Origin: Catajapyx aquilonaris
Taxonomy: Eukaryota
Assembly: GCA_000934665.2 (NCBI GenBank)
Contig: KZ538121.1
Span: 62,001-119,779, forward strand
Length of the DNA: 57,779 nucleotides
Direction of reading: 5' to 3'
The translations under genes and the position numbers were made by a program. The notes beneath the pieces are model-generated. The model did no database searches. It was not told the DNA's origin and worked only from the letters and a program-made list of their open reading frames with translations. Shown one piece after another: positions 31 to 57,779 of this stretch (position 1 is its first letter; each line of letters opens with the position of its first letter).

Positions 31-867
31 TCAGCGCTTCCCATTGTTGTAGCTCATGGTGCGTATGGGCGCCTTGAAGTTGGCGGCCGCCGCCTGCTGC
101 ATCTGGTACGCCAAGGGATGGATCTTGAACCCATACAGCCTGGGGAAAAAAGGGAGGTTGGATTTAGTCCCCACCGGTGTGCGGTCCATGGGAGTACCGA
201 CCTTGGTACGAATTGGTTGGCAGGCCTCTTTGGGCGGTACTCGGGATGAACCATGAAGAGCATGTGGGGGAACCCGGTGCCAAAGTATGACCCGTCTGTG
301 TGGTGGTGCCGGGAGGACTTGGGGCTGTACACGTCCATGCACTTGGGGCAGTACAGCTTCACCATCGCCTCGCCTGGCACGTCGGACAGGCCTGGAAAAT
401 GAACCGGTTGCGCAATTGCATCGACGGTTTAACAGGGAAGCGTACCGATAGGCAGCATGGGCTGATTCTCGCAGTAGACCCGCGGGCAGTGTCCGAAGTC
501 GCCAGCCTGGTACTTCTCAATCATCTGCGCGATGCCACGATTGGTGAGGATGTACCGGGAGTGGATCAGCCCGTAGAGCATCTCCGCCGCCTGCTCAATC
601 AGGTCGGACTGGTTCGGATTGTCCTCCAGGTCGTCGTCTGCAATGAGCCGGTGAACACACGGTGTGCATGTGCAACGGTGTGCGTACGTTACCTGGCTCC
701 AAGTCCAGGATCATGTCGAGGGCCTGCCTGTAGTGCGGGACCTGCTCGTTGAGTCCAGTGAGGTTGAACTTGTCCTGTATGTAGTCCTCGTCCACCTCGC
801 AGAAGAACTCGTTCCCTCTCAACCCGCAGAACCAGGATATCCACGAGACCTCCTCAGAGCTGCTCAT
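31..867 (-). CDS. CSNK2B: Casein kinase II regulatory beta subunit
   Basis: Spliced exons 867-693, 637-446, 391-202 and 139-31 with GT-AG introns give [14 protein letters not shown]...[25 protein letters not shown]...CPRVYC...LYCPKC...[26 protein letters not shown]...NNGKR*, the canonical CK2-beta sequence. Confidence 0.98.
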
Positions 868-10230: not shown

Positions 10231-10335
10231 GTGACCTTTTGTAGGATGGTGGACAAATGACCCCGGGAGTCGGTGATGGCCGACGTCCCGTAACCAGAGT
10301 GTGGTTAGTGGGCCTGGGACGGACAGGTGTCCACA

Positions 10336-31646: not shown

Positions 31647-32928
31647 TCACTGGTCCAGCAATGAAGCTGCGGCCTGGTCCAGAATCCAGACCAGCTGTCC
31701 GTCGTGCGGCTGGACCATGCCGGCTGGAAGCGGCTCCTTGTCCTTAAGGATGCGCTGGAAGGCGGATTAATTAGTGCGATCAATTACGATGCGTACAAGG
31801 GACTTACCTTAACGACAGGCGCCTTTGATTGCCCTGCGAGTGCGAATACGCAGCAGGCGGCGTTGTTGAGCACGGGGAATGTTAGGGTGATCCTCTCCGG
31901 AGGCGGCTTCGGGGAGTCTACGACCGGAGCCACCCAAACGGACGTCTCCTCCAGGATCCGCACCTGTCCGGGGAACAACGAGCAGGTGTGTCCGTCCGGT
32001 CCAAGCCCTAAGAGAAGGATGTCGAAGCGAGGCACCTGATCTGGAGGGAAGCGCAGGGCCAGCTTCTGGATGTAATCTATCGCCGCTCCCTCCGCTGCAA
32101 ACGTCAAAAACACAAGCGATGAGACCTTGGCCGCAGTGACAAGCATGAATCATCAGCAGAATAATCACAGGAAGTGAAGTCATCCGTTATAATGCATTGT
32201 TACTAGTGCGACGTGTCAGATCGTACTGTAAAAAAAAGGAGTCGGCGACCCATAGCGTGCACTTTGGATTAGATTTGGGCATTAAAAGTTGTTTTTACAC
32301 TTTCGACCCCTTTGACCTCTTGGCCTTGGTCTCCGGCCAAGAATAGTCCGTGTCTATGACCTACAAGCAGCATTATCAGCAGGTGTACGCTACGTAGCGT
32401 TATGCGCACATGTGTACAAATCTTACTGTTGCACCAGATTCGCTGATAAAAATGGCACAACATGTTGCTCAATCGCACGACTCTTGCAAGATCTGGCGTA
32501 CATAGCATCTCCCTGTGTACCTCTAAGCGTGGGATCGACGACCACGAACTGTTCCGCGGTGAGCGGGACCTTCCCGATGATCTGGTCTTGGTACGCCTTG
32601 AACGTGGAGTCTTCGCTGGTGAACGGCACGACCCTCTCGTCGCAGAAGAACACCACCCATTTGCCCCAGTCCGTCTTGATCGTCGGCAGCCCCTCGGCCA
32701 GGAACTGAACCAGCGACCCACCTGCAACAAGGGGGGGTCAGCCGCACACATGACCTGAGGTCAAACCAAGGTCAACATACCTGAGACCCCAATCTTGAAG
32801 ACGTCTCTGGCGTCGATGGCGTCCCTGGCCCTCTCCTCTATGATCTGGGCCAGCGTCTTGGACACCTCGGACTGGCTGGACACCACCTCGACCTTGCATG
32901 ACCCTGCTGACCTGTTGTTCTCGCCCAT
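31647..32928 (-). CDS. PGLS: 6-phosphogluconolactonase
   Basis: Exons 32928-32781, 32721-32521, 32094-31808 and 31754-31647. Motifs FKIGVSGGSL, FFCDERVVP, FDILLLGLGPDGHTCSLFP, DSPKPPPERITLTFPVLN and WILDQAAASLL*. Confidence 0.97.
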
Positions 32929-34739: not shown

Positions 34740-36683
34740 TATAAAGCATGCGGGATAAACTGCAATATTTAATTAGAGGTTCATCCTGCCAGTTAGTTAA
34801 CCCATGAGCCTCTCTTGTTAAACCGAAAGCCTGCTTCTCAGGGGCTCGACAAAAAATCCTTCTCTCTTGAAGGCTTCTGTCGTCAATCAGTGTCGCAAAG
34901 TTCTTCAACTCTGTGAGACTGTCGAAGCGAGAGACGTTAACTAACCGGCGACTAGTTAATGAGTAGTACAGTGTCTAATTAGCTAACTTGCTCCATCTCG
35001 AGGTGTGTTAAGAAGAAACTCTTCTCGTTACTGCATCTTTTTTGTGATATACTGTAACGTATGCGCTATGATTAATTATTATGCAGTGTGTACTATACTC
35101 TCCATGACTTATGAAGCACGTTATGGCTAAAGTTTTAACCGTTATTAATTAATAATTGCACTGGGCTTGACACTTCGTTTAGTATTCAGTACAGTACACT
35201 TCATGCAAAATAAAAATAGTGCTTGGGTGTTGCTGCCCAGCAGGTTGCTTCTCTTTCCGGTTGCTGGACTGAACAATTCCTTCTCGACACGGCAGATCCA
35301 TCACTTGTCACTGTTTTTCCTGCAAGTATCCGGAAGTGATTAGATAAAGTTTGGCCCAATCATTTGAACGAACCCTTCCGCAATTACACGTCCCTCTCCT
35401 TCCCATAATCCAAAGGGAATTGAAGTGAAGGCTACTTACTTTTTTTTTATCAATCACTCGCCTCGCACTCTGGAAGAATTTATTTTTGGAGCAGGGGCCA
35501 TAAATTAGAGGGGGACATTAAAAGGGGATTAAAGTGGATTAAATCGCCGATTCCAGTAAGTAATGGCGGTTATTATGGGCTTAATTCTTCAGAGGAGACG
35601 AACTTGGCAACACTGCACTTGGACGTAGCACCATATGCTGCACATAGATGGCGCAAAACTGATGACTCACCGCGGGCAAACAGAGGCACAGACCCATTTG
35701 CCAATTCTATATAACTAGCAGCGGACCCGTTCCCAAATTTTGGCCCACCCCAACTTGGACGTAGTACAATAGGCCACTAGCAGTTGGCGCATATGTGCCT
35801 CTGCACACTCCTGCCACTCTCAGGGAGACACGTTGGTGATGAGTCACTGCGCGGACAAAGTCTGAACCGAGTGCGCAGCATGCAAGGTTGGCAACGGTTG
35901 GCAAGCTCTCCGTACAGTGCTTATTTCCAACGCTACTCTTGGAGGGGGAACAAAATGGCCCGTTTGCGACGTTGCCAAGGCCCCGGAATGAACGTGTCAG
36001 GCCCTTTGGCAACGTTGATATGGAGTGTGCGCGAGTGTGGGTGCGCACTCGGTTGCGCTCGTAAAATAATTTCATTTCTAGTAACTGTGTGTAGCCTAAC
36101 CAAACGCTGTTTAGCGCATATACCCACTATACATAGTATTACCCTTGGCCCACTTTTGTCAGAATGTGACGACGAGGCGTGCCCCCACACAGTATATCAT
36201 GTGGATGTACCCATATAAAAATCATGAGGCTTATTAGTACCTGTTGCGTTCGATTTGTTTCGATTCGCATGGTGAGTGAAAGTGCGTGTGTTGTCAGCAT
36301 GCAGCATAAGTATGTAACGATCTGCGAGGGGTTGGCTGTATGTGTATATACGGTATGGTAGGTGTGGGGTTGGTTGAAGGAAAGCGGGGTTTTGGGGACG
36401 ACGGCGGGTGTGGGTGGGTTTGGAACTATGCTATGGGAAGGGGGGGAGGGGACACGCCCTGTCGGTGCGGCGCCGGCTATAGCCTCCTCCTCCTGGCTCC
36501 TACTGCCGCTTCTATAGTCCCCCATAGTCGCCGAGTGCGCGCCGACAAAGCCTCATCCGCGGCTTGGTAGACACAGAGAGTGGACGCGATGCCTGGCATG
36601 TGCTGTGTCGTCGTGTGGGAACACCAGACGACATAATAGGTGTCCAGGGGAGAGGGGTTGGTGCCGGGGCGGTGGGCGGCGAC

Positions 36684-36763
36684 ATGGAGGCCCCTTTGCC
36701 ACCCAGGTACCGTCTCCGGGACCTCATCCTTGGGGACTTCGCATTCGACGACGACGGACTAAG
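36684..36763 (+). CDS. KCNT: First coding exon (A) of a Slo2/KCNT Na+-activated K+ channel; the rest of the gene lies beyond the window
   Basis: MEAPLPPRYRLRDLILGDFAFDDDGL-R matches the KCNT2/Slack-A N-terminal motif PLPPRYRFRDLLLGD...DDR. It ends phase 2 at AAG|GTAAAG. Confidence 0.85.
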
Positions 36764-37522: not shown

Positions 37523-40500
37523 CCCTGCGGCTTCTGATAAGAACTGCCTCTCTCCAATTGGCTCGTTTAGAGTGATGGTCAGCAGTGTCAGGTTTCAAGT
37601 AAGAGGGCCTTCAACTGTGGCATGTTGATGGTTATTCGCGTGTCTCTGTGTTATGAGGCCATTCTGAGAACCATAGTTGAAAGCCCTCGCACTTCATATT
37701 TTATAATTATGTGGGCTATAATTGGTTATACGTTTCTTTGCGTCCCTATACACATCGTGCTGATCACCTAGGTGCATGTATAGTTATAGTGGAGCGGCAG
37801 TAGTCTGAAGAGGAGGTGCCTATGAGCCAACTGGTAGTGGCCCATCGCACTACGTCCAATTGGAAGGGGCGGACCGAGCAGTGTTGCCAAATCTTTGTCA
37901 ACTACTAGTTAACAGTTGGCATATGATTCATAGTAGCAAGAGTGATAGTAGCCAATCCATGTTGGCTTCTGGATATCTTCATGTCATTGGCGCTACACGG
38001 TTATCGTAACTTGAAGTAACAGCATTTGATACAACAACAGTAAACATTGTAGCCAGCCCTGAAGATGCTGGAGATGCCAACGCCCTGCACTGTGTACGGG
38101 GAGGGTGTTCCCTATAGGGGTTAGAGTACGCGGTACACAGCCAGATGTGTCGAGGTTGCGCGCGTCATCACCATTCACAAGACTTGTATCCACTGCTGGC
38201 GTCGCACGTGTCAGACTATCGCAGACTATATACTGTTCCCATGGTTGCCGTCATCATCCGGATTTTCCGGAGATCGATAGACCCTACCATGTGCAATCAT
38301 CTCCCTTCCAGCAGATAAATTCTTGCATAACCAGCAGGCCCTATAATGGTCAACAATGATTAGCAGTTGTTATGCCAGGTCAGCACCAGCATCACAGATA
38401 GAATTGGCTAGGCGTGACTTTGTCCCTATACACGCGCTGACTCATCACCTGCGTGCATGTAGTTACACTTTCCGCTTGGAGTGGCAGTAGAAAATGGCAA
38501 AGGATGCGCGCCATCTGTTTGCGAGCATATTGTACTACGTTCAAGAGCGAGCCGAGCAGTGTTGCCAAGTTTTTTCTCTCACCATCGGAGGTGTAGGCCT
38601 TATTGTGGCAAAGTGGTTGATCCTGAAGCGCTGCTCATGCTTCCTATTCAATTAGAAGTCGACAGAGAGTGTAATTACATCCCGCCTCCCCCTAATTATC
38701 GGCATTCACGACATGGCCTCCCTCCTCCCAAGTATAACGAGAGCAAAATCTGGTCAGCTTTTCACCACGTGCGCCAGATGCCTCTCTCGTTATGTTATTA
38801 TTACGCGTCAAATTCCGATAATAAATTGAGCAGAGGCGGTGCCATTGCGTGATTGCCAGATCCACACAGAAAAATCCTTCGTGTCACAGGCACACCGCGA
38901 AAATAATCAACAGTTAAGCTGATGACTATGGTTTGGTGCACGGATCATGCCCCAGTTAAAAAGGTCTCGGTTAAGGTCGACAGGCAGAAGTGTCGAGACT
39001 GCCGCGGTTATAGTTGGGGTGTGCTACGCCTCTGGTGCGTCCCAACGCACCAAGGCACACGCATACAATGAGGTGAGTGTCTTTCGTAGTTTAAATCGTA
39101 CTGTCCGAAACTTGGCAACACCGCCCGGGCACCAGACTGTCCACATAGTACCTTACTTCGCTCATAGATGGCGCACCATCTCTCTCTGCACAGTGCTGCC
39201 ACTCTCAGGTGGAAGAAAAGTGGACTGACTTCGCTCATAGATGGCGCACGTCCCTCTCTGCACACTACTGCCACTCAGGCTCAGGTGGCAGAAAGCGGTA
39301 CGACATGGCTGATGACTCGTCGCGGACAAACAGAATGCGGATCAATCAGTGATACATTTTAAGTGCCACAAACCAATCGGGCGATGCAGGTACTTGCCAG
39401 TCCGTTGCTCCTGCATCTGCAGAGTGGTGCCATTGTTGGCTCTAAAACGTCCTCCAGGGAGCCATAATGTTAGACTGGGAAGTGGGTGACGTTTGCCCCA
39501 CTTCATACCCCCCTTTAATGGGCTTGAAAACCCAGGCTGGCGGAGAAGAGGATGGCATTACACAGGCTTGGGAGGAGACGTCTCAAAAGCCTCGAGGAAG
39601 GTCAGGCTGGAATAACAGAGTCTGCGGTGTTTCCCCCCACCACAAGAACCGATCCTTTTAACTTGGCTTAACCTGCATGCCAACTGCGCAGCGGTTAAGT
39701 CGATTAGATGTCCAAAAGCTGGCGAAACGTCGGGTATTTAATCAGCTGACTTATGTGACCAGCAGCGGTGTCATATTACATCTCAAGTAATACCGTGAGG
39801 AAATAACATCGAAGCAAAAAGCATCGTGTGACCTTTCGTTTCTTTCAACTTGTAAGGCCTTCAACTATACACAGCAGAGTAGCCATCTGAATCACTCAAG
39901 CCTTACTGGTAGGTCTACACCGTTTCCCACTCATTAAAACTTCAAGCGAAAGGTAAACATGCGCAACTAGAGAAGTTTGCCACCTGCAGGGCGAGTGACC
40001 CTATGGCCCTAATTAAATTAATTAGTGGAGAAGCAGCTAGTGGCTCCGGGATGGGCTTTAAAAAAATGGGCGTTATTACATTAACAGTAGGCTACTGTTT
40101 AAAATTGTGCGAGTCTGCAGGGTACATCACATTAATTGCAGTCATACTCAGACGGGACTTGAATAAACTCCCAAAGGTACAGTCCACCTTGTAAACCCAT
40201 TGCCAAAATTTGGCAACACTGCCTGATCTTCCGACTGTCCACATAGTACCTTACTTCGCTCATAGATGGCGTACCCTCCCTATCTGCACAGTGCTGCCAC
40301 TCTCAGGCGGAGGAAAATGGTACTACATGCTCATAGATGGCGCATCCTTCCTCTCTGCACAGTGATGCCACTCTCAGGCTTGTACGAGAGGAAGTGGTAC
40401 TACCAGCTCGGACAAACATCAGACGGAACGACAAAAGCCAATATCGTGTTATACTTGGTCTGGATTGTGAATCCGACTCTGTTTGACGTCAATCCTTCCC

Positions 40501-42599
40501 ATATTGTGCAGGGCTAATGCTTTTTGATCCAATTCTATCGGGAAGTACCGTACCTCTGGGGAAATATAGTTTAGCATTGAGAGGGGGATAACAAGAGGAC
40601 TTTTGCGTGCAATATAACACCGAGGGATATCCGTGGAGAGGGCAGGAAAAACCAATGAATTTCTATAGTGTGCCATCAACACCATGCCCTTTGATGTCAA
40701 GCCGTACTTTCAGATACAAAGGCACGTCGTTTCAATAGAACTCATGCTCTTAATTTCGGCGCGTAATTAGATTAAAAACGAGTGTGCGCACATTAAATTA
40801 ATCGCAATTAGGTGGTATTACCACGGCCTGGTTGAAAGCAGACGAAAATGTTCCCAGAGAAATCCGAGCCAATCGTCGTGAACCGTGCAAATTTTTGGTG
40901 GAATCCAGCCAGTTGGCCCGGGTCAGATTGTCTTAAATTAATGTCTGCTGAATACTCCTGAATATATTTTAAGTAATGTCAGATTGCCGCAGCTCAAACC
41001 TTGCCCCCCCTTTTTTTTTCTCTCAAAAATTCATGTGACGTAACCAGTCGCATTTTCGTACAGGGTGTTTCATAGTGATTCAAACTTGTGCAATTATGGA
41101 ACAACCTGTGGTGAGTTTGAAAAACGAGGGGCATGTCCAGGGGTTACATATACATTATGTAGTGTGCGTGAGTCGTCTTTTTTTTGGATCAACCAGGCGT
41201 GCAGATAGACCGTGGCGTGTGCTTGGGTTACTATACGAGACAGGCCATACCGATGTTCTCCAGAGCCGATACGCATCGGTTATAGGTGTACTAACAGGCA
41301 GTGTGTCTGGACCGGAAGAGTTGCGATTAAAATTAATGAGGCATGTCGCTCGATTGTTTTTTAAATTGTTAAAATGTCAGTTGCATGGACATCACGTCGA
41401 ATATTGTCATCACAAGTATTGGCAATATTGTTCCGGAAATACATGGCACTAATAGGGATTATCCTACATGTTATGTAACCCCCACACGTCGTCTAACCAG
41501 CCGGATATTCCCTATACATCACATAGATTGTCTCCGGCTGGTCGGATGATCCAGTGTACTAAATCTGGGACGCAATTATGCTTAATTGGTTACAGGCCAT
41601 TACGCAATTAATTACATGTTCGCGCATCTCTTCCTCCTGAAAATTGCGGACACGGAATTTTCGAGCTCCTTTTAAAAGTTCGCAATTTGGTCCAGCGTAA
41701 TTAGTTAATGACCGTGAGATAGACGTGAACAATTTTTAAGAGACGAAAGTAGCGCATTAATTATATTTTGTTAACCTGCAGAAAACTCCAGAGACACCAA
41801 TTCGCGTTGGGAATTTAATTACCGTATCTGCTATTAGTGCAAAAAAAATCGTGCGAAAAACTGCGACCAAGTCTGCTGAGAGAGGAGCAACGACCTGCAA
41901 AAAAAGGGGGCTTTGATATCTCAAATCCAACTTAATTTTATTTATGTTTACATACCCTAATTTCGCTGCATTAACCCCCCTACTACATCCTAATTAGACC
42001 TAAATTAACCACCATTTTTGCATTTTACTTTATGTCGGCAACCGTTGGCTTTACGATGACGTTTCTCCCCAAATTTTTCTCGTACTTTTTTATTTATCCT
42101 GTTATTGGCAATTTCATGTCCGACTTGTACTCTTTGAAATGCCAATATTCGCAATAATATTTGTCAGATTGCTGCTAAATTCCCTCGTAATACTATAGGG
42201 CAAAAGGAGCAGTTAAATTAGGTCGTTCCCACAAAGTAAAGCAAACACTACCGTACTTCCTATAAACGGCTGGTTTAAAAAAAGAGTGGCTAAATCAATG
42301 GGGATATTGATTGGAAGCCAATTGGGCCTCGGAAGCACCTGACGTCACCATCAGGCTGACATGTCAGATCAGCACTCGGGATCCTTTCATTTTTGGCCCA
42401 GTTCCTACTGACCTCAAGAGTCGATTGATCTTGGCTTAATCATCGATTTATAGGTAACAAAATAAGTCTAAAATGTGGGGTGATCAATGTCACGTTACTC
42501 ACGTAGTAGCTTATGCAAGGACTGTAGTGACCCTGTTGACCAAATTTGGCAACACTGCCCAGTCCGCCCCCAAATTAGACGTAGTACGATATGCGATCG

Positions 42600-42821
42600 G
42601 ATAGATTGGGCCAAAACTAGTCGAAAATGTAGATGTTTAAAATGTCGAGAAACGAAACTGTAATGGCCAAAATGACGTCAAACTTTTATATCACGCGTGC
42701 CATCTGGTTGTGGCACTATCAACCAGATGATATAAAAGTTTGATGTCATTTAGCTCATTGCTGTTTCGTTTCTCGACATTTTTAACATCTACATTTTCGA
42801 CAGGTTTTGGTCCAATCTATC
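42600..42821. mobile_element. Palindromic MITE inserted into a copy of the dispersed repeat
   Basis: GATAGATTGGGCCAAAAC..GTCGAAAATGTAGATG pairs with CATCTACATTTTCGAC..GTTTTGGTCCAATCTATC, with arms of about 90 bp. Confidence 0.82.
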
Positions 42822-44490
42822 GAATGGCGTCTGCAGTTTTGACTCACCATGTATGTAACAGGGATATGCCGAAATTGACATTTAAGCTTCCACCACGCTG
42901 CTCACTATGTGCCAACAATCTCTGTGACACTCGCGTATCGATCAGGTGTAATGAGCATGTACAATGAGCCCGAAATTGAGCTGTCAGTTGCCCATACATT
43001 GCACACGACACGAACATATTGATCATCGATTGAAAATGGGGTGTGTACAACAGTATTTATGCGTTTTGAAGCGGCGCCAAAAGTTTGCGGGAACCCGAAT
43101 TTTTTTGGTTTAATAATAAATGATGAATGCAAGGCGTCAAGGCCTGGTTTCTCATATGGTACACATGTTCATTACGCATCGATCACCTACTAAAAATAAT
43201 GGCCACTGCAATTTACACCGTTTGGTGGTCTGCCTCACCAAATCGCTAATTCAACCAAGTGTCCAAAATAACTGTAAAACGTTCAAGCAATTGCGCTAAT
43301 TGGTTTTTTAAAAGTAACAAGCCTGTTACTTCCACACAAAAAAAATCGCCGAACCTGACTCCTGAACCGCATAGCAGATAGTGAAAGTAAAGATCGGGCG
43401 GTCCAAAGGTAAACGAACTCTTGAGAGGCAAAAATGTCGTGAGAATCCGGGGAAATCCGGAGATATTCCGTACACATATTCTTCCGGTGATTCCCCTTGA
43501 GGCACTGCCTTTAATGTGATTTTTATCTTCACGTAACTCTATCTCGTCGTCGTAATATTACACGCCCTGCTGTGCATCTCCTATTTGCGATGAGAGGCAC
43601 GTTTCGTCTCCCTTCGAGAGACATCCTGTCCCCGCCAACAATAGACCGACGTTGGCTTTTATAGTCCGTCGTGCAGTGTTGCCAGCTCGTCATGTTTATC
43701 CGTTCCCCCCCAGTTTTTTTTTGGCTACCCTCAGGGGAGATTCACTGACTGGCAAGCCCTTATTGAGCCGGAACCCAATCGTCACGCCGCATCGCTCGCT
43801 GCTGGAAAAGTGGGGCGTCGCGACGCTGCCGACGCTGATAACACTGATAGACTTTGCAAAAGTATAGTGAGATATATATCACTTGAGAAGTAGCGAGGAG
43901 TTGCTTTTGACTGTCGCTCATAGATGGCGCTTCCTCCCTCTCTGCACACTGCTGCCACTCGGGTCTCGCGGGGGAAAGTGGTACTACATGCGGCTAGGTG
44001 ATGACTCACCGCGGACCATATTATTCTGATGCGGTTTGTTCAGAGAGAAAAAAAATTACAAATCAGCAATAGCAGATGACAATCACTGTAATTTGTCTGG
44101 TTCATTTTTTGCACATTTTTCAGAAGAATGGGTACAATTATAGCAGCAATTATATTTTTATGGCGCTGTAATTGCACTTTTGGAGATAACGGCACCACCG
44201 AAATATGTGCGGCTCCCATTGTGTCGACCAGTAAAAATTGGAGTTCGATATTTTCTGGAGCGCAATTACGACGCGAAATAATGTGCACGGAGATTCGAAT
44301 CTTTTTGCGGGGCAATTTTCTGCTCGTTGTGGGACTCCTCCAAAGTGTTATTACATCTACCACACAAACCTCGTTCGAAAAAGCACGACCCCCACGTCGT
44401 AGTTAAACCGCACGGATAAGGATTTATGACACCCTCGGTGGCTGGCTCGTAAAAGTCTGATTCTTGTACTTGTCTGTTACATCAACACAA

Positions 44491-44837
44491 ATTAAAATGG
44501 ACAATCTTCAATAATTGAAGATTGTCCATTTTAATGCTTTAATTTGTTATATGGTTCATATCATTTGGACAGTTGCTCTTCAATATATTGAACACTTCGA
44601 GCACTTTCTGTGGAATTGGTTGTATGAAAAATGCAAATTTGGAAAATTCTCTCGAATAGTTCAACATAATAATTATGTTGAACTCTTTACTTAGAACTCT
44701 TACTTAGAGAGAATTTTACTTGAACTTACTTACTTAAAGAGAATTTCCATTTGCATTTTTCATACAATCAATTCCCCAGAAAGTGTTTGAAGTGTTCAAT
44801 ATATTGAAGAGCAACTGTGCAATTGATATGAACCATA
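44491..44837. mobile_element. Perfect 21-bp hairpin followed by a ~290-bp foldback MITE
   Basis: ATTAAAATGGACAATCTTCAA-taa-TTGAAGATTGTCCATTTTAAT at 44491-44535. TATGGTTCATATCA...TGATATGAACCATA with ~100-bp arms at 44550-44837. Confidence 0.82.
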
Positions 44838-45927
44838 GACAATATTATTAATAACATCAATGATATGAACATAAATTAGCCAAAATATGTTATTAAATAT
44901 TTAAATTAATAATTAATACCACAGGCTGTGTCTTTACAAGGTATTTTTGTTCAAATTGCGCTGTTAATTAATCAGATTGCGCTGATTGGTGTTTTCGCTG
45001 TTGTCCTAAGGAGCAATGGACCGAAAGACAGCCGGATCATATCACAGTCTGTTATTGCCCAATATGAGTGTTATTACTTCCGAAAATGGAAGAAAAACAC
45101 ATTAATAACAGCGTCGTTTATGGTCAGCCCCCCCTTTGGTCTTTCCGCGGCTTGTTAAGCCCCATTTTACGACTTTGTCGTCCCCCACATGAAGTGCTCG
45201 ACCCCGGATGGACATCTGACCGGAAAGAGACCGAATAATTCAATCAAAGTGAGGGACGTCCCTGTGGGTGTTTCCCCGAGGGCGTCGGTCCTGTCCAGGC
45301 GTAACGAGCGTCCCTCGAGAGCGATATAATCCGGGAGCGTCTAATGGTGGCGACGCGGGTGGCCGCCGATTCTTCAGGGCGCCATTTGACTACACGTAGT
45401 TCCGGTCGTGGCCGACAGATGGCGTGAGAGTGCCGGGGGAAGGTTTCAGATGCGGTGTTGCCACTGTGCGCGTCCCATTTGATGTGTCCGAACTGTCCCA
45501 TTTGTCCCCAACAATGTACGCCGGATATGTACACAATTTTTGAAGGCATTTTAAAGCCGTTCTAGACCAGTTAATCTCATTGTATGTACCGGTTTTACTA
45601 GAGTGAATGACTAAAAGCTGGCAGCACCGACTATAGCTTGCGAATCGATAGGCGTCAGTTTAGCACCCGGAAGAAGAGTTTTAGGGGTCACGTTATTAAA
45701 CTATGGTTTTTTATATCCTGTGCAGTTAATGCACGCTCGTTGGAGATTAGGCATGTAAAATTACATGTGTGTGAATGAGAGGGGGGTTAAATTATTCAAT
45801 GTGTGATACTGTAAAGCGATAGCTGCTCACCGATCCGTGTGCACACGTGTTACATTGCGACACAGTTTAGCACGTACAGCAATTAAATTGGCAAAGAAAT
45901 TTTAAAAGATATCAACTTAATATTACT

Positions 45928-45932
<5 letters not shown>

Positions 45933-45958
<26 letters not shown>

Positions 45959-46245
45959 TTTACCCCGTGATAGAGCCATTGGCTCCCTTAGGGGGGGAGT
46001 TGATCCCAATTTTTTTTGTCAGGAACTCTTTGCTTTTTACTTTTTGATTCACTTTTTGGGAATGGATAGGGATGGAAGGAAGCGGCTGTGGCCTGTTAAT
46101 TACGGAAACAACTCCGGAATTTTCCTGGAGGGACCGTGGGAAACCACAGAAAACCACGGTCAGAGTTGCCGGTCCCGGGATTTGATCCCCGGACCTCCCG
46201 ATTAGCAGCCGGACACCATATCCCCTCACCTACTGCTGCTTCGGT
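45933..46245 (-). mobile_element. tRNA-derived SINE with (TTA)n tail and 16-bp target-site duplication
   Basis: tRNA-like head with B-box-like GGATCAAATCCC, body GGTTTTCTGTGGTTTCCC...AGGCCACAGCCGCTTCCTTCC typical of insect SINEs, and an (ATT)n tail. TTAATATTACTATAGT is duplicated at 45917-45932 and 46246-46261. Confidence 0.92.
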
Positions 46246-48304
46246 TTAATATTACTATAGTCCGAATATGACATGACTTTTGTACTGTTTTTTTAATATT
46301 TTGAAAGAGCAGCTATTTATAATGCTCACACGGTTATTACGAGGACCTTGGCGCATAAATCGGGCATAAAGCACTCTAGTGCTCTAATTAGTTTTTTTTT
46401 TTTTTTTGCCAAAGCCAGTTTATCATGCTGACAGTAATAATTATCCGGCCAAATTACCCCGCAATTAGTTACCGGCTGGAGACTAGGGATTAAACCTTTG
46501 CAACAGTTGTGTACATTTTATTAATATTTGTAAAAAAGTGTGTCCAAAAAGGGTGCTGTCAAATGTATAAAATTGGCTGTGACTCTGTCCGCGTGAGTCA
46601 TCAGTGTGAGAAATGGTACCACACAGTTCGGCAACCTGGATGTATACATTTTTCAGGATATCCCACTGTTGCAATGCATAAATCATCCGTAATTGTCGCG
46701 CAAGTAAACACAAAGTGCGCTCAATATTACTGGAAGTGCCAATAAGCCCAAAAAGGTCGGAAGTTATATGTTCTGTATAAACCTGCTCATTTTGATTTCT
46801 GGTTAGTTCCTATTCGATCTGTTTCTCCTAGGAATATGGGTAGAGATAAGGCGTCGTCCCAGTGTTTACTCTTCCTATATATTATGGAGGTGAGGGCCAA
46901 ATAGGAGAATCTACTCTCCTGAGGTGGTGGGGGGGTGGTATATAGACTCAATTCCCACCCAGCGAAGTGACCTCATTTTATGTTCTTACGTAGAAAGAGT
47001 GCTCCCTTGTTGGCTGGGAACCAACTGCGACTTTGGAGTTCATAAAGGGGCGACAAAGTGACCATTCTGCACCTTCCACAGCGACCATCACCATTACACT
47101 ACTACTACTATATACTCCCATTTTTAACAGTTAGAAACGACGCCACAATAATAGTCACCTGCTGGACGTCCTTGTGCGAAAAAGCCAGTTGTAAATATTA
47201 CGAGAGAAGCGAAGGATTTTAAAATATATATATTTTTTTAAAAATCAAGAGTACAACATAATGACGTCATTGGAAGCCCTGACGTCACAGTTGTGGCGTC
47301 ACTATAGCAGTTCCCTGTGAGGACTATCGATTCGTAGCAAAGGCTACACTGAGGGGTTGGAATTACCCTGCGTACAGACTCTCATTACATGTGGTTTGTA
47401 ATCCTAAACCGCCATGATTTAAATATATTCTGTCTCACGAACTATGGCTAATTTTTTTGTTTAAAAAAAGTGCGCGAGTTGACATCGTGGCGTGACGTCA
47501 GAATTGCGAATCTCTCGTGAATAATTAGCCAGCCTTGTTAGCGGGCGTGGATAGCAAGGCCGTGGATAAAACCAGGATATTTTTAATTAATGCTCCTTAA
47601 TTGTCGCAATTAACCACACACGAGAGCTACTAGGGGGGAGTTGAGATGCTGCAGAAACAAGCGTGGCAACCGCGCAGGTCCACCCCCCGCCCCACCCACC
47701 CCTTTTGCCCACCTCCCAAAAACGCCCGGTCCAAAATCCGGAGCCAGTTGGCCAGGAAAATCCGGAGTTCCATGGAGACATCAGGTGCGGGTTGCCTACA
47801 AGACATCTCGACAGTCACTGGTGGGGGACACTGTGTTGCCTCGGAGTGTATCGCGACAAATCCGGGGTTATCCGGGTTTAAAAAAAATTTAACAACTGTG
47901 ATCGGGTTACGGCTACTGTCACGCACATTTGTCACGGAGTAACGGCTAGTGTTACGCATAGGAAAAAAGCAGTATCTGCAAGATTGGCGCATTTCTACGC
48001 TCAAATCAGTAGAAAATCAGCAATAAATAATCAGAAAAATATGCCATTTTTTGCGCATTTAGCAGAGTAATGGCGAGTGTTTCGCATGGCCAAATTCGCC
48101 AAAAAATAGTGCGATTTTTTAAATATAATGTACGGTGAATGTTACGCGCATTTTCAAGCATCTCCCTGGATTTCCTAAATGGTGTGAACTACTTACGACA
48201 TTATTTTGGTAGTAACACGGGCCAAATTCAAGTCAAAAACTGTTTGTAAACACTTACTACTATTTATTTATATTCACTAACCATTTTTGGTGGGGTTACG
48301 ATAC

Positions 48305-48518
48305 GTTAGGTTAGTGTTACTATGGGTTAGGATAGGGTTAGGATGGTTTAGAGTGGTTTAGGGTGGTTTAGGACGGGGTTAGGTTAGGTTAGGTTAGGAT
48401 GGTTTAGAGGGGTTTAGGGTGGTTTAGGGTGGTTTAGGACGGGGTTAGGTTAGGTTAGGTTAGGTTAGGATGGTTTAGAGTGGTTTAGGACGGGGTTAGG
48501 TTAGGTTAGGTTAGGTTA
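48305..48518 (+). repeat. Interstitial (TTAGG)n-like tract with GGTTTAGGGT variants
   Basis: Runs of TTAGG interleaved with GGATGGTTTAGAG(T/G)GGTTTAGG in a higher-order repeat. Confidence 0.9.
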
Positions 48519-50379
48519 AATCGGTTCAGATTACACATACTTTGTCAACTGTTTACCTTTGTGAATCCAGAAAGAGTAACCTTAACTGTAATATTGTCGT
48601 GATAAAATCGTATATAGCTACGCCCTTTTTTCGTGAATCCGAATGATCGACAGTGATCATTGACTCGGTCGCGTGTTATTGAAACTAAACATGCGTGTCT
48701 GGATTAATACACCTTTAGCTTAAACCCACACCCCCCTCGACATTTTATGAAGCCCGTGACCTTTTCAACGCCGCTTGCAGGGCAAGGTCAATTCCAAAAA
48801 AGTGGGTCGGTACACCACCAAGGGTTTGTGTATATACAACATCGTGTACAGAGGGGGGGTTGAATTGTCCGCAACGAAATCCCGCAATTTCCACATGTCC
48901 GCATCGGAAGTGGCAAGTCGATAGGTTCGTTCCATCTCGCTACACCCCCCCCTTGTCACAGGCCTCACTTTTTCAAGATGAAAAGATCACCCGAGGGAAG
49001 TGAAAAGGAAGCTGCAGTCAACAATAGAACCATTGTTTCAAAGACAAGTTGGCTGTAATAAACTCTGCGGGGCTGAATTTGTGCAACCTCGTTGGAAAAG
49101 TGGGCTGATCTTTACTACGCGGCGTAAAGTAGCACCCGCTTACCCTTTATCCTCTCAACAATTTGGGTGGTATGCAGGGCTTATTGACACTTGCCTTTTT
49201 TTTGCTCTAATTATTGCGAATCCCTGCTCGGCGTCAACTCAAGTTACGCATTGATTCCTCGTGTAGCGCAATTGGCATGGCCCCACTTCCCCCCGCCAGC
49301 CAGTTGGACCAACAAACGGTTGTAGCGACCGAACATTCCATTACGATGTAATTAGAATGTTACACGGTGCCTTTGTTTTTCCTCTGGGAGGAACCCCTCG
49401 ATTTAATTGGCCACACTGTAGAACCACAGAATGTTGTAAAATACACGCAATTTTTTTTCAACTAGAAAAACCCTCGTTTCGCTCGAATTTATATGCCTGC
49501 GGTTAGAGAAACACTCGTTTCGCTCGGAGAAATGTTGCTGGGGTCAACAATCCACAATTCATTCGTTTCGTAGGATGTCGGTCTTACAATGTTCTTGTGT
49601 ATCCAAAGAAACGTGACCGATACGGACAAACTCGGTTTACAGGCGCATCTATTAAGTCGTTCCCATTGTCTCCAGCTGCCTTTGAAATCTGAAGAGAGTG
49701 TTCCCCAAAGGAAGTATTGTCTCTTATAAAAAAGGACGCGGTGCACACGGTCGGAATGTCTCAAAATGTTTTTTTTTTTTGTCCGTCTTTATTTACATGG
49801 CCGTCGGCGGTCGATACGGAATGCAAACCAAACTCCAGGAGAAAGAAGCTCTTTCATCCTGACGTAGTAAGCAGTGCTCTCAGTCTCTTTATTGCTAGTA
49901 GAGCCAGTTAGAGCCGGTATAAAAGATGTGGATGGGGCTCACAGCAGGTGATGAACCTGAAGGAAATTTATATGGCAACACCGCGGGCGATTTGTCAACA
50001 CCGCGGGAGTAATCTCAAGGCCACTGCTTGCAGCGCCGACTACCGGGTTAGTCAGGCAACTCAGAGCTGATCCGCTCACTTGAAAATTCGGCGGAAATGG
50101 GGTCTCGGATTTTTCGCCCCCGCCGGTTCGCCCCCGGACATTTCGCCCCCAGCATGCAACAGGGCCCACTTCGTCGCGTAGTAAAGATCAGCACTCATTT
50201 CCGACATTGTGTATACATACTCCGTTATTCCGTGGCACAGTGTGCTTGTAGAGTAGCTTCCAGTGTTTGGCTAATAATTTACAGTGCGGTGTGACCACAC
50301 TGGAAATAATTGTGGAGTGTGACGTCAAGTGGTGTGACAGAGAGAGATTTGGGTGGTTGTCAGCATCCGCCGCTAGGAT

Positions 50380-51251
50380 GTGGCGAGTGAAGATCGCGTC
50401 GTTGGTGGGGAGGGTGTTCAGGGGGCGGAGGAGGGCAGGGCAAAGGTGAGGGGCACATCGTATTGGGCCTCCTGGGCCTCGTGGGGACGCTCTGTGCAGC
50501 GGAGACGAGCCTCGTGGCTAGGGGCGGGCGGGCCCGGGGGCGGACCTGGGGGCGGGCGGGAGCGGGAGCGGGAGCAGTACGGCGGGCAGCAACAGCAACA
50601 GCTCCTGAACCCCGCCCTGCAGGCATCGCCACCACCGCCGCCGCCGCCATCGTCGTCTCCATCAGCAACCTGCTGCAGCAACCCTCCTCAGCAGGCTGGT
50701 CGCCGTGGCAGGCACTGCAACAGCGGCCATTGGCACTATTCCAACCTGGGAGGCAATAGCCTGGAAGAGGAGGAGGCGGAGGAGGCGGAGGGGGAAGAAG
50801 AGGAAGAGGAGGAGGAAGAGGACGAGCACTACTACGAGCAGGAGTACTCCCCGCTGTCGGTCGCCAGCCCTAGTCCCGAGCCCCACGCCGCCGCCTTGTT
50901 TCCCTCCTCATCCGCGTTCGGCGCCGACCACGCGCGAGCTTGCCGCGCGCCTTCGCCTTCCCCGCTGGCTGCTTCCGCGCCTGATTGCCGCGTCGGCGGG
51001 GTGGAGGAGACCACCCAGCAGCGGAGGGCCCGTCGGATGGGAGGCACCCACTGGCGGCCCTTCTCCGTCTCCTCCTCCTCCGTCATGGCCGCCTCCTCCT
51101 TCTCGGACGACTTCAGCTGCGCAGGCGCATCCTCCGCCGCCGGGCTAGACGACCCCGCTTGGATGCTGCACCCCAGGCGGAAGAAGGCCTCAATCCGCTC
51201 GCTATCGGCCTTCTCCGACATCTCCAGGTCCTCATGCAGGCACGACGACAG
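50380..51251 (+). CDS. Candidate alternative first exon (B) of Slo2/KCNT with a low-complexity N-terminus
   Basis: GC-rich ~290-codon open frame (poly-Q, poly-P, poly-E) ending ...SCRHDD-R at ACAG|GTACCG, the same phase 2 and DDR-type junction as exon A. The first in-frame ATG is at 51037. Confidence 0.65.
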
Positions 51252-54200
51252 GTACCGCATCGTCTCATGCAATCAATCCATCGGGCAGGTCCAAACTGTA
51301 AGGGGGGGTGACAAGTTCATGCGCATACATGTCGCCATTAGACTAGTACTCCAGGGACACCCAGACGTTTGCTACAGACATTTCAACCAAAGAATGATCT
51401 GAAGTCACACTGTTTACGTCCTCACGATTTGAATCTCGGTCGCACGACTCTTTAAGTCCGACAAAATATTTTCTGAGCATGCGCAGTAGGACATGATTGG
51501 AGGAAAGAGCCGGGTGGAGGCGGGGCTTACCGTGACGTCATGTCGTTCTTTGATTTAACGGTCAGTAGGTTGGTTAGATTCTCAACATTTGACCCATGTA
51601 TACATTTTCGATATCAATATAGCCACTGCACTGGCTGTTATGACGTTCTGGCTCATCCTGTACACTGTTGACAGTGCGAGTAGTTTACAGGGTACCATCC
51701 ATATTGTTATTAAGCTTAATCCGTATTTATTCCGGCCAGGGACGCATTATGCTGAAACATGTTTTCAGTTCTGTTTTGTTGGACCAGAAATCAATGCTTG
51801 ATTGGCTATCTATCATATTTTGTTGCATGAAAACATTCCCCATATTCTGTCCGTAGTACCAATATTCGTCACATAGATTGCGCTGTCACTCGGGATCAGG
51901 CGTCGTCCATAGATGGCGCATCCTTCCTCTCTGCACAGTGCTGCCACTCAGGGTCAGGCGGTGAGTAGTGGTACTACCTTGCTGATGACTAGCCGCGGAC
52001 AAAACAGATCTGGAGGTGCCACAGCCGCGATTCGGATTTCCCTAGGCGACGTGTAGTAAACCTATGTTTTTACCGATGCAGCCCGCAGCACACGGTACAA
52101 AAGCCCGTTTCTCGAGCAAACTCGGCAGATTTACTATAGCCTCATTCCCCAATCGGATTCTCCCCTCCCAAAATCCGATCACATTTCGAACCTCTAAACT
52201 CTAAAGAATCCTGATCTTTCCAGGTCAGAGTTTAGAGTCGGGAACTCAATATCGGCCGGATTTTTACAGTCGTATCCCATCACCCTATTGCCTATATATT
52301 TCTCTGCAGGTAATGGATGCGCATTGTGTGCATCCATATGCAGTTGAAGGAAAACGGTCGTCAAACAATATGGCCGCATGCATAAGTCGTTTTTTTATCT
52401 TCCCCAGATGACTTCCTGCGCAATGCTCGTGAATTAATAATTATGACGAATTCTCCAATTTGTATCGTCTGGGAGCCATCCTTTGCATTATGAATATTGC
52501 TGGTATGCCATAGCCGGAGTTGACCTTTTCCACCTTGTTTGTCATTCGGTTTGCCCCCAAAAATTCATTTTCATACCGGTCGGATTTTTGCGACATAATA
52601 AAAAAACGGCAAGTTCTTTTGCGGTGCGCCAGTTCGCGGTCGGCTGCGTTGTTTCATTCTAGCTGCGGTCATATTTTTTTGTGCACTTCTCTATGCGCGG
52701 TTTGCAACTATAAAACAATGTGCAAAAATATTTTCGGGGGAGGAATGATCCTTTTTTCCAGTAATTTAGTCAACAATATCGCGTTGTGCTATCGAGTGTT
52801 TCTGCAATTTTTTTTGGCAAAAGCGTAGCGTGTCAAGAGGGCCAGGTGTGTCTGAAAAATTAACCATGGTGTACGATGTCACAAGGTGCCAACAATGCTG
52901 ATGGCTAATCCATCCTACCCCCACAAAAAAGGCCTCTTCATGATGATGGGGCCTCATCACACGTCCTTTGCAGCCAGATGGAGCTCCCTAATACCTTCGG
53001 GAATTTTTTTGGCAACAATGATTGATTGCCACGGAAATATCGCGTCGCAAACAAAAAAAAACACGTCGCATCAGATCACAAATTGCATTTCCGCTATTGT
53101 CGCGCCAAATTATACGCCTTTTGTTAAAGGGCCAACGATATGAATATTAAAGCCATGCGATTATAAGCGGAAAACCCGTTTCTGATGTTAAAGAGTGAAG
53201 CCAGCAAAAAAATAATAATAATCACGAGTTCCTGTCCTCTCCAGGGAGTGAACCATCTCACTTTGCATACACGTCATCACATCGTCTAACTTTACCACTG
53301 AATAAATTTTAAAGGCAAATCTGCAGGAAAAAACTGCACGAATCTCGTTATTAAAGGGACACGTGCTGGACGCGTTTAAGCAGCAAAAAAAAAGGTATGT
53401 AGGATAAACAGGGTTTTAAAGATAAGCAAAAAAAATTGTTTCAACTCTGAAAACTTGGTTGCTGGAGTGAACAACGAGGGATTTGAGGAAGTGCGCCGCC
53501 TCAAAAAGGGATATAGGATATCGTATAATTTATGGCGCAGCTTCATTTTTTCATCCTGCTCGATATATTCAGATTGCCAATATCTTGGGAAAGAATGGCT
53601 TCTTTTACATCATGTCGCATTCACCGTCGTCGACCAATATCCGTGGCCTCGGAATCCACTTAATTTTTACACCGTCGCCACTTTTTTTTTTTTTCCTTCA
53701 AGGCGACGGAAGACAACAATTCGCGATAAGAGACACTTTAGACGCCATTTACTCGTCCAGTTCAAAGCTTTTGAACGATGACATAAAAATTGCGATTTCA
53801 AGAGCGTCGAGTGACCTCCAGAGACGGACAAAGAGACGCAGGTGGAATTCGAAAGACAGTCACCAAGTGTTTACAATTCAGGCTGTGGCGTTCACTCTAT
53901 CTCCACGTGAGCTGCAGACGTTTAGGATTATATAGTTCAACACACATGAACTCACACATTGTTAGTGCAATTAACAGATGTTCTTAATTTCACTAATGAA
54001 TAGTGTATGAACAACCTTGGGGTATAGTTCAACATCCTCTTAGCAGTGGAGCAAACCGCGCCTAAGTAAGTATGTACAGTGGCGTACAAATAGTATATGG
54101 GAAGTCACAAATATTTAATCCAGCTCAATTTAGTTTAACGAGCCAAACGTTCTGGCGCTAAATAATTTACAACAGTCTCTAGCACGTTAAATTATTTTTT

Positions 54201-55762
54201 CCCCCCCTTCTAACTTTACCTTGATAGAGTGCGGATGATTTCGAAGCTCCAGTTTGTCTCAGCACATCTAACGTCACTCTCCCAAGCAATTTTTTCTGCC
54301 AATCATCACTTCTCTCCGCCAATCATAATTTGCAGTCGTATACCTTTCCAGCCAATAACCGTCAGAGAGTTATTCTCTTCCTGTCCACATCATTACTCTC
54401 TGCTGCAACCAATCAGCGGATCCAGCAGTGTCGCAACAACACGATCATCTTTCCAGTCGACATTAGTCTGACTTATTCTGACTGTCGCGTCGTAGGGGGG
54501 AAAAAAAGACAATATTTCTATAAGCAGCAGCCTCGTTTTACTGAGCATCCATAGTACAAGCCTATAAAAATGGCTGGGTCTCGTAGCGTGTGAGGAGTTA
54601 GAAATTGATGCCTTTCAAGCTTCAGGAGTTGAACGTGTTTTCGTTTCCACGGCGCCAATCCGGTTCAGGAAGCCTGCCCGTCAACCAGCCATTCAATACA
54701 GTCTATATAAACACCGTTGCAACATGGCTGCCATTTTTCACAAAATTGAAACGAAATTGTGTAATATTGTAATTCGAGCACAAAAATGTGCATTTATTCC
54801 CATGCTTTTGATGGAATGTGCTACACGGGTTCCTCTTTGTTTTAACGCCAGAATTTGGACAGGCGTTTTATCACACCCAATACTTTGCTCCCAGACTCCA
54901 TTCCTGGAATAGTTTTCTCCTGGGCAACGTTCAGATCTTATCGATTTGGAAGAAAGCATCGTCCTTCACATATACAAATGCTTACAATATTACGACGAGA
55001 GCCAGGTGCGGCCCGTTTTTCTTTCTTCAGAAACCAAATGGGACTTCCGACTGAAGTGTCTCCGGTCATGCACGAACGTACAATACTGTAGGCGCCGTAC
55101 CGATAGTATTCAGCAGAGAAATGGATGGGGGATATGGTTCGAAAGGAAAAAAAAGAGGGTGCCTCACGTTACCGTGGGAATCGATTCCTGAGGGTAGAAA
55201 AGGGAACCCACTTTCGCCCAACCCCAGAAGGCTCTATATGAGTCTATCTCTCTGAGTGTAAAAAAGGGTCGCAATTTCCCCGGAGGCCCGCCTCAATTTG
55301 TTCTTCTCGGATTGAGTCTCGGCAAGGTGCAAGGCAATCCTTTAGCCGCTTTTCATTACCGCGGACCTTTACCCATCAGACAGTGAAAAGGAGGGAACAA
55401 AATACCTCCTTTTTAGTGTAGGTGTCAGGCCGCCAATGGGTGGGGATTGCCCCGCGACACTCCTATCTTATTACGGAGACGTCATGTCTCGGGGTTTGTC
55501 TTCAAATAAGGCGACAAGGCGAGAAATGACGAGGCCATAAATGTAATGGGGGCTGGCGGCAGCAGATGACTCCAGGGGACACAGCAGATCACGTCTCACT
55601 AATATCACCTGCAGGACTGTCCATAGGAAGTACCTGATTTCGCTCGTAGATGGCGCACCCTCCCTTTCTGCACAGTGCTGCCACTCTCAGGAATGTGCAC
55701 GTTGGTGATGAGTCACTCCGGACAAACAGAGGCACAGTAATTCCATCGGATTGGTATGAGAA

Positions 55763-55986
55763 CTGCCATCCGCTCGAAGAAGACCGCAATTCAACATCCA
55801 CTTTCCCTTGCGGCGAGAAAAAAAAGTAGTGGTACCAAAATCATCCAACAGGTGGAGTATGGGTGGCCCGTTCCTTTCTCACTTCCTTCAACGCCACCTC
55901 TTGGATGCTTTCGGTAACACTTGCTTACTTTTCTCGCCGCAAGGGAAGTGGATTTTGAGTTACGGTTTTCTTTGAGCGGACGGCAG
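55763..55986. mobile_element. Degenerate foldback/MITE
   Basis: CTGCCATCCGCTC...CCCTTGCGGCGAGAAAA pairs with TTTTCTCGCCGCAAGGG...GAGCGGACGGCAG. Confidence 0.78.
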
Positions 55987-57220
55987 AGAAGTACTCGAGT
56001 GATGATTGGTGTGTGCTAAAATTATTGACATCAGCTGGACCAATGAGAAACTGCCTCGTCCACATCTGAAAGAGTCAGAGAAGATGTAACGACCTGGCCC
56101 CAGAATCAAAATGCAAATTGCTTTCCGTAAAGCTGGCTGATGCGCAATGAATTTCGCTTATGCTCCGGTACACACTGTAATCAAATTTGCGACAAGATCC
56201 TTCATGACTGAAGCTGCTTTTTCCATGGGCGTCACCTCCCCCTTTAATTAGAATCTAAAGGGGCTTAATTATGTTCCTAGGACCAACCCCACGTTGTAAA
56301 AGAAAATAATCACATCTCAGACCCTCAGATTGATCAGCGACCTCTGACCTTTCGATGGTCCATTTTTACGACTTGGAGTGTGTGTGGTCGTACATCAGAA
56401 ATAATTGATCAGCCAAGAGTGGTACAGTACATCAGCATCCAGGAGCATGAATGAAATAGACTCGTGCGGTGCATCGATGACGTCGCGGTCTCCTTCCGTC
56501 GCTATATGGTTTCAGGGGGGGGCATGGAATCGATCTCGTATCACCCCCGGGATGCTGCGAATCTGCGCAAGATAGCCCCCCACACATCGATCTCTGCATA
56601 TCTCCCCCAATTTTTTTCAAACCAAAAAAAAAAAAGAAATCCGCTGAACCACTACGCTCTATTTAATTCGAAGCTATCTTCACAGATGTAGATCCCGCGC
56701 ATCTGCACGTTCAAATAATCCATAAATTAAATGGAAGACACGGATTAAAGCCCTGTCGGATGAGTAATGAATCCAACTCATCACTTATTCATGCCTGCAG
56801 GAAACTAGCGCTTCCGCATACTTGTGTTATCGATGTTGAACATGCGGGCATGCAGCTGAGAAGTGCGCTTAATTCTGTAAGTCACGTACAGTGTCCTCAT
56901 ACACAGAATTCACAATCGGTAAACAAGTCGACTCATCACCTATAGTAGGTAGTAGCTTTCACTAGCGTCCTGGTGGACTTTGTCCGGGTGGTGACTCATC
57001 ACCAACGTGCATGTAGTACTGCGTTCGCCCTGAAAGCGGCAGGCGTATGCAGAGGGAGAGCCTGTGCGTCAACTGGGAGGGACATATCGTACTACGTCCA
57101 AGTTGAAGGGGGGGGGGGCAACGGGTAGTATTTTATAAAAATATGTATACTTTGTCTATACTGTTACCTGCCACATGTTCACACAATACTATATTTTAGC
57201 CTGTGATAAATGCTGATAAA

Positions 57221-57305
57221 TGCTAACTGTACTTCTTTCTCTCCCTTTGCAGGTAAGACATCGATTCTTGCAAATGGTGTCTTACAATCTTGAGATCAGG
57301 TAAGG
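57221..57305 (+). promoter_or_regulatory. Recursive splice site (ratchet point) with 47-nt RS-exon
   Basis: Branch-point-like TGCTAAC at 57221, polypyrimidine tract, TTTGCAG|GTAAGA at 57252/57253, and a second donor CAG|GTAAGG at 57299/57300. Confidence 0.75.
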
Positions 57306-57779
57306 TTGTTTATTTCACACTGGCGTATATATATACACGTCGCGTGCTAGATATATAGTCGATAGATAGTCGCGTGCAAAGTGCCAAGTGCTCGTATTTC
57401 GTAATTAAGAGGTTTTGTATTCCCATAATTCGCAATTCTTTTGCAAAGCGATATGGCACCTTAAAATTACAAGGCCATTAAGAGCTTACTGGTGGAATGG
57501 AGTCGGGTTAAAACTCCGGGGGTAATAAATACTAATATGCAGGTTGGAAAAGCAGGATTGCTGCCCGACCAGGGCTTGCACTCAAAAGTATATGCGACAG
57601 TACGCAGGCGTAATAAAGTATAGTCGCCAGGTTGCCAAAAACCAGAATTATTTAGTATGAACATCTCGTGACATACAGTACATGCAATTTCATTGAATTG
57701 CTGGCATGCTTCCTGTGTTTATCTATTTTTTTATGAATATGAAAAATGAAAAAATACTGGCACTATTTGGGATACAGGC

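Follow-up and report, generated by a model that had tools for sequence, protein, structure and literature searches.

How could the long 5′ intron common to the alternative first coding exons of a Slo2/KCNT-like potassium channel gene be removed in Catajapyx aquilonaris, and could a compact element inside it, a splice acceptor that directly abuts a splice donor, take part? The original prediction, drawn from the letters of a 57,779-nt stretch of DNA (hereafter, the window), was that positions 57221-57305 form a recursive splice site and that its 47-nt exon acts as a stop/restart switch for the channel N-terminus. We found that the architecture is present, that it is improbable by chance and that the host gene is Slo2/KCNT-like. 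From these findings we infer the use of either splice site and the order of the steps. With a probability of about 0.5, we read 57221-57305 as a recursive splice site (ratchet point) that would carry a short cryptic RS-exon in the long 5′ intron common to the Slo2/KCNT first exons. On its sequence, this is a credible candidate for a recursive site in the Slo2 first intron, of a kind already well described.

The host gene, its first exons and its neighbors

The window contains one first coding exon with recognizable relatives and a putative second one (slashes within motifs mark splice junctions):

36684-36763, plus strand, Slo2/KCNT alternative first coding exon A: 26 codons plus AG, ending in phase 2, donor AAG/GTAAAG
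51037-51251, plus strand, putative alternative first coding exon B: 71 codons plus AG, ending in phase 2, donor CAG/GTACCG (6/9 consensus)

In human KCNT1, residues 62-83 match exon A (PDB 8hir_A, E 3.6e-4). A HMMER search of 1.84 billion representatives gave 65 matches at E<=0.001, with identities of 71-88% in all but one, and in 38 of these 65 (a count made on the hit table) the match ends exactly at the last residue of the query. The motif PPRYR(L/F)RDL...DDGxR is found in 19 of the 20 matches that were retrieved; the exception, P0121, is an unrelated repeat protein. Two of the 19 motif carriers end at the final R, while the other 17 run on with continuations mostly unlike one another, as expected from read-through into an intron. 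Ten matches were looked up; those with names belong to Hymenoptera, beetles and ticks, one of them being called 'Potassium channel subfamily T member 2-like'. A word-based homolog search with exon A plus 13 upstream codons returned zero matches. Exon A has the form of an A-type N-terminal exon, PPRYR(F/L)RDL(L/I)LGD ending at a conserved R, and carries a motif of the same type as Slack-A and Slick. To judge from these matches, exon A is a Slo2/KCNT first exon that has been conserved along with its 3′ boundary. The naming of the host gene as Slo2 is borne out by the KCNT1 match and the conserved arthropod exon fragments, which support a Slo2/KCNT-like gene.

For putative exon B, we found no homolog in the word-based search and no Pfam family. 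Its frame runs open for 875 nt (50377-51251), yet no ATG occurs in it before 51037. Ahead of that ATG, the sequence is GC-rich, low in complexity and acidic, and several other frames are open there too. The true extent of putative exon B is uncertain.

The 3′ end of the Slo2 intron lies beyond the window end at 57779, where the channel body (transmembrane segments, pore and RCK domains) would also be. A short motif used as query found no next Slo2 exon in the six frames of the window, and 57300-57779 holds no common exon. Eight long open reading frames at 38463-54912 (seven intronic, plus the exon B frame) gave zero Pfam families, and no nested gene or transposon was detected among them. An Rfam search of 50000-57779 returned MIR173 (26.8 versus 70 bits) and CLRN1-AS1 (16.8 versus 48), both far below gathering and both taken as chance matches. 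A minus-strand gene at the site was considered and rejected, as there is no open reading frame of at least 110 residues beyond 54912 and no RNA family match.

Alternative first exons are a known feature of the mammalian channel. According to the accessible text of one paper (PMC3850776), the Slack-A and Slack-B N-terminal isoforms of KCNT1 arise through alternative promoters, Slack has five N-terminal transcripts with separate promoters and distinct gating, and the alternative N-termini set gating kinetics and partner choice. As far as that text goes, the arthropod gene is alike in having alternative first exons that would give differing cytoplasmic N-termini on a common channel body; it differs in that putative exon B, and the third N-terminus discussed below (C), are without homology to anything found.

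Pfam families identify the other genes in the window:

54-428, minus strand, casein kinase II beta
4398-5687, plus strand, TRM1 tRNA methyltransferase
7150-8232, minus strand, EST1/SMG-like protein
10309-16726, plus strand, roquin (RING plus ROQ)
11765-14308, minus strand, ankyrin plus ion-transport TRP-like channel
24292-30180, plus strand, EF-hand mitochondrial carrier SCaMC
31784-32149, minus strand, 6-phosphogluconolactonase

Human counterparts of several of these neighbors, together with KCNT1/2, lie in the MHC paralogous regions 1q, 6p21, 9q33-34 and 19p13. The run of genes upstream of and including Slo2 may represent an arthropod synteny block, compact and of proto-MHC type. The best matches of a SCaMC exon come from insects, chelicerates, myriapods and crustaceans, at no more than 75-78% identity. 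One SCaMC intron (24777-24824) is only about 50 nt long; its donor reads GTCAGT, and near its acceptor is the branch motif CTAAC. Thus, the genome mixes very short introns with introns of more than 20 kb. The assembly gaps in the window consist of a single N at 19849 and 12 N at 26589-26600, the latter inside a G-rich run.

Layout of the element and its expected frequency

The candidate site at 57253 is on the sense strand of Slo2, downstream of exon A by 20,489 nt and of putative exon B by 6,001 nt. Its parts are:

57223-57227, plus strand, branch-point-like CTAAC, with the branch A at 57226, 26 nt 5′ of the AG
57230-57252, plus strand, pyrimidine tract and CAG acceptor, with an AG exclusion zone free of any AG
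57253-57258, plus strand, GTAAGA, candidate ratchet-point donor that adjoins the acceptor and becomes an 8/9 consensus donor once ligated to A or B
57253-57299, plus strand, candidate RS-exon of 47 nt, present in a single copy in the window, its length not a multiple of 3
57300-57305, plus strand, second donor GTAAGG, candidate RS-exon donor (CAG/GTAAGG at 57297-57305, 8/9 consensus)

Every letter that had been described is there: CTAAC, the pyrimidine tract, CAG/GTAAGA at 57252/57253 and the second donor at 57299/57300. The acceptor CAG (57250-57252) and GTAAGA (57253-57258) are separated by zero nucleotides, and 18 of the 20 bases from -23 to -4 of the acceptor are C or T. With CTAAC at 26 nt, this tandem of acceptor and donor has the form of a ratchet-point motif, and the CAG/GTAAGG 47 nt 3′ of the acceptor supplies a downstream 5′ splice site within ~100 nt. 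Bona fide introns of the SCaMC gene in the same window have the branch motifs CTAAC or CTAAT and TTTGCAG acceptors, as at the 57252 site; the SCaMC acceptor near 29989 resembles the 57252 acceptor, and both end in CCTTTGCAG.

This layout is familiar from Drosophila. The portions of two papers available to us (PMC8605326, PMC6110457) report intronic ratchet points with cryptic RS-exons in Ubx, kuz, Bx and more than 500 others. In the accessible text of the first (PMC8605326), fly ratchet points carry a cryptic exon of ~50 nt, cryptic RS-exons are 'generally out of frame', and conservation of the acceptor/donor motif is a hallmark; a further partial text (PMC6224609) states that most ratchet points have another 5′ splice site less than 100 nt downstream. 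Fly recursive introns, as described in the excerpts consulted, are enriched among first and very long introns, with segments typically of ~9-15 kb; very long here means the longest few percent of fly introns. The claim of ratchet-point and RS-exon architecture thus agrees with the literature in its tandem acceptor and donor, its ~50-nt cryptic exon and its second donor less than 100 nt downstream. The candidate is also like fly sites in its long pyrimidine tract and CAG/GTAAG core and in a cryptic exon that is closed by the second donor and is out of frame with a stop; like them, it appears to sit within a long first intron, and its host is a neuronal gene. The same TTGCAG/GTAAGA core recurs in two D. 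melanogaster sites with experimental support, among the consulted rows of part 1 of the Pai 2018 S1 Table (PMC6110457). It differs in coming from another organism and in being known from sequence, whereas fly sites are known from splicing intermediates and conservation. It also differs in that only the 20.5-kb segment from exon A is of typical recursive size, the other being 6 kb.

How often would such a layout arise by accident? The pattern YYYYYNCAGGTAAG occurs once on the two strands of the 57.8-kb window, compared with 0.04 occurrences expected, and a match appeared in 4 of 100 shuffles. We simulated 300 first-order Markov versions of the window. In 2.3% of these (7/300) a donor directly abutted a strict acceptor, and in 2.7% (8/300) a looser site had another strong donor 20-100 nt to its 3′ side. 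Strong donors (8/9 consensus) number 30 in the real window, of which 14 are plus-strand and 16 minus-strand. Counting exon-like acceptor-donor pairs across 36764-57779, we found one stringent pair on the sense strand, which is the 47-nt unit itself; the antisense strand had none. Relaxing the criteria by one step gave 4 and 0, and the loosest setting 19 and 17, which is noise.

These numbers bear on the reading that the unit is a pseudo-exon, made of splice-like motifs that happen to lie in a pyrimidine-rich intron stretch and are never used. Since the chance is ~0.02-0.04 per 58-kb window, many accidental copies are expected genome-wide, and the near-equal counts of loose pairs on the two strands also speak for a pseudo-exon. 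However, a branch point at ideal distance, the pyrimidine tract, a clean AG exclusion zone and a juxtaposed GTAAG all coincide here, and an 8/9 donor stands 47 nt downstream although there are just 30 strong donors over both strands. The orientation, sense within a long first intron, and the strand bias of the stringent pairs also count against a pseudo-exon, a reading that we regard as quite unlikely. Chance is an unlikely source of the layout. Judged by its splice signals, 57253-57299 is genuinely exon-like, and its first base is also the first base of a donor.

If an 8/9 donor is required together with an acceptor whose tract has 14 or more pyrimidines in 20, three more loose exon-like units emerge on the sense strand of the Slo2 intron (50153-50445, 52663-52845 and 53245-53394) and none on the antisense strand. 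These could be non-coding leader exons or pseudo-exons.

A dispersed short repeat occupies 56976-57114 and ends in a G run ~85 nt 5′ of the splice unit. Partial copies, of 72-92% identity, are located at 35751-35862 (minus), 37793-37872 (plus), 55696-55726 (minus), 38438-38463 (plus) and 43970-44010 (minus), and the repeat at 56976-57114 is probably the relic of a small mobile element. The 47-nt unit lies outside this repeat, which ends near 57114.

Competing donors and a proposed route for recursive splicing

We expressed donor strength as the energy of the duplex with the 5′ end of U1 (kcal/mol), which is a crude measure. The natural donors of exons A and B score -6.8 and -7.1, the donors rebuilt at 57253 score -9.5 after A and -11.0 after B, and the RS-exon donor at 57300 scores -11.5. 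Joining A or B to 57253 would thus upgrade a weak natural donor to a much stronger one. The rebuilt donors are not stronger than the RS-exon donor: both have 8/9 consensus, and their energies are about equal, with the RS-exon donor slightly ahead. In this respect the candidate differs from Drosophila, where the ratchet donor is mostly the stronger of the two; the parts of the fly literature at hand include exceptions such as hth, making this feature typical and not obligatory. Since the RS-exon donor is not weaker than the rebuilt donors, there is room for real inclusion of the 47 nt and for the rival readings.

If the element is a ratchet point, the 47-nt unit would be recognized by exon definition, through its branch point, pyrimidine tract, AG and the 57300 donor. 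Splicing would then join exon A, from 20,489 nt away, or exon B, from 6,001 nt away, to 57253, and the junction would rebuild a strong donor, (A/C)AG/GTAAGA. Use of this rebuilt donor would remove the 47 nt together with the remaining intron, so that the mRNA would keep N-terminus A or B and the site would leave no mark on it. If the 57300 donor were used instead, as might occasionally happen, the 47 nt would stay in the mRNA and a TAA would directly follow the junction.

To our knowledge, recursive splicing has been documented in Drosophila and in vertebrates. If the site is used, zero-length-exon recursive splicing would extend beyond these groups to another arthropod lineage and to a Slo2/KCNT gene.

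For vertebrates, the consulted part of a review (PMC5126111) presents the 'binary splicing switch' model of RS-exons (Sibley 2015), and annotated vertebrate RS-exons are described in the accessible portion of Blazquez et al. 2018 (PMC6224609). As set out there, donors at the start and end of a short exon compete, and inclusion brings a premature stop; the Slo2 unit is laid out alike, and in both the outcome could depend on the upstream exon that is joined. It differs in that inclusion of the Slo2 47 nt is only putative, and in its start codon: the model, as given in those parts, does not have a start codon that rescues a new N-terminus. Poison exons, which couple unproductive splicing to nonsense-mediated decay (PMC8605326, in the text accessible to us), offer a further comparison. 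In either case, a short exon that is out of frame would, once included, cut the reading frame short; poison exons, however, are regulated and usually conserved cassettes, whereas the stop of the Slo2 unit follows automatically from the donor consensus.

Searches for related loci beyond the window were negative. A degenerate pattern that combined the ratchet core, back-translated MVSYNLEIR and the donor gave 0 matches in a metagenome scan, and a locus search with exon A extended to 48 codons gave 595 pattern matches, of which 0 were confirmed. We found no mention of recursive splicing of SLO2/KCNT genes in the texts searched. Neither 'SLO2' nor 'CG42732' appears in the consulted parts of the Pai 2018 supplements, which says little, as the table is from S2 cells and identifies genes by FBgn numbers.

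The stop codon, the in-phase ATG and a possible isoform choice

The 47-nt unit had also been predicted to stop the reading frame of A and B and to restart it. Exons A and B do end in phase 2 (AG), and joining either to the unit makes the junction read AGG TAA, with the stop at 57254-57256. The stop is not an independent signal, since any phase-2 exon followed by GTAAG reads xxG TAA. Two further features enter the argument:

57274-57299, plus strand, ATG plus 7 codons plus AG (MVSYNLEI-R), possible start of a third N-terminus, exiting in phase 2
57134-57141, plus strand, TATAAAAA, putative core promoter element ~120 nt 5′ of the 47-nt unit

The predicted ATG, at 57274-57276, is the sole ATG within the unit, encodes MVSYNLEI and leaves in phase 2. 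As for its context, the G at +4 fits a good start; at -3 (57271) there is a C and no purine. An in-phase ATG that is open to the exon end was found in 3398 of 20,390 random 47-mers from the same intron (16.7%), and 988 of the 20,390 (4.8%) also had G at +4. The in-phase ATG is weak evidence for a switch. Thus, the sequence pieces of the proposed stop/restart switch are all in place, but its stop is automatic and its ATG has a chance rate of one in six.

In its full form, the proposed switch is a single element that yields isoforms A and B by ratcheting the intron out, or, if the 57300 donor wins, leads to a stop followed either by restart at 57274 (isoform C) or by nonsense-mediated decay. Since neither competing donor is much stronger than the other, either outcome of such a switch is plausible, and the complete set of sequence pieces also agrees with it. 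There are precedents in the vertebrate 'binary splicing switch' and in fly RS-exons, some of which have variable expression levels (both as given in the partial texts consulted, the former in PMC5126111). Set against these points are the automatic origin of the stop from the GTAAG consensus, the chance rate of the ATG and the distance between stop and restart. Here the restart would come just 17 nt after a 27- or 72-codon frame, and reinitiation so shortly after a frame of that length is expected to be inefficient. We consider this combination distinctly improbable; the three-way choice between stop, restart and nonsense-mediated decay is speculation built on a plausible recursive site.

The same ATG could serve without any recursive splicing, were the 47 nt an ordinary alternative 5′ exon that supplies ATG 57274 for a third N-terminus, MVSYNLEIR. 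The GTAAGA at its start would then be incidental, and A and B transcripts would skip the exon. It might be a second exon after a non-coding first exon with a third promoter, or the end of a first exon transcribed from the TATA-like box at 57134. This idea fits the ATG, with its G at +4 and its place in the single frame whose phase-2 exit agrees with those of A and B, as well as the frame itself, which runs without a stop from ATG 57220 across the acceptor to the end of the 47 nt. The five N-terminal transcripts of mammalian Slack, in the portion of PMC3850776 available, make a third N-terminus biologically plausible. The TATA-like TATAAAAA could provide a promoter, and the three loose units upstream on the same strand are possible non-coding first exons. 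We found no initiator match for a promoter at TATAAAAA, and transcripts that began at ~57165 would bear the upstream ATGs 57176, 57210 and 57220. Moreover, an accidental GTAAG at the exon start would occur about once in 1000, by our own estimate with equal base use, and the C at -3 and the 16.7% chance rate of an in-phase ATG weaken the case further. On balance, an ordinary 5′ exon appears unlikely.

Recursive splicing and a third N-terminus could also be combined in a ratchet point that doubles as a promoter-dependent N-terminus selector. Transcripts from A and B would rebuild the donor and erase the 47 nt, whereas transcripts from a third promoter would keep the exon and start at ATG 57274 with a 9-residue N-terminus; they would retain the 47 nt through a non-coding leader exon or by starting just upstream. 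This arrangement seems to us very doubtful. If it were true, an RS-exon with a start codon would make a three-way isoform switch in an ion-channel gene. In general, a start codon inside an RS-exon would tie donor choice to channel isoform choice; the texts searched contained no description of an RS-exon that carries one.

Directly 5′ of CTAAC, the 10-nt unit TGATAAATGC is present twice in tandem (57204-57223), and each copy adds one upstream ATG, at 57210 and 57220. Given an upstream transcript start, 57220-57299 read unspliced at 57252 comprises 26 codons, MLTVLLSLPLQVRHRFLQMVSYNLEI plus AG.
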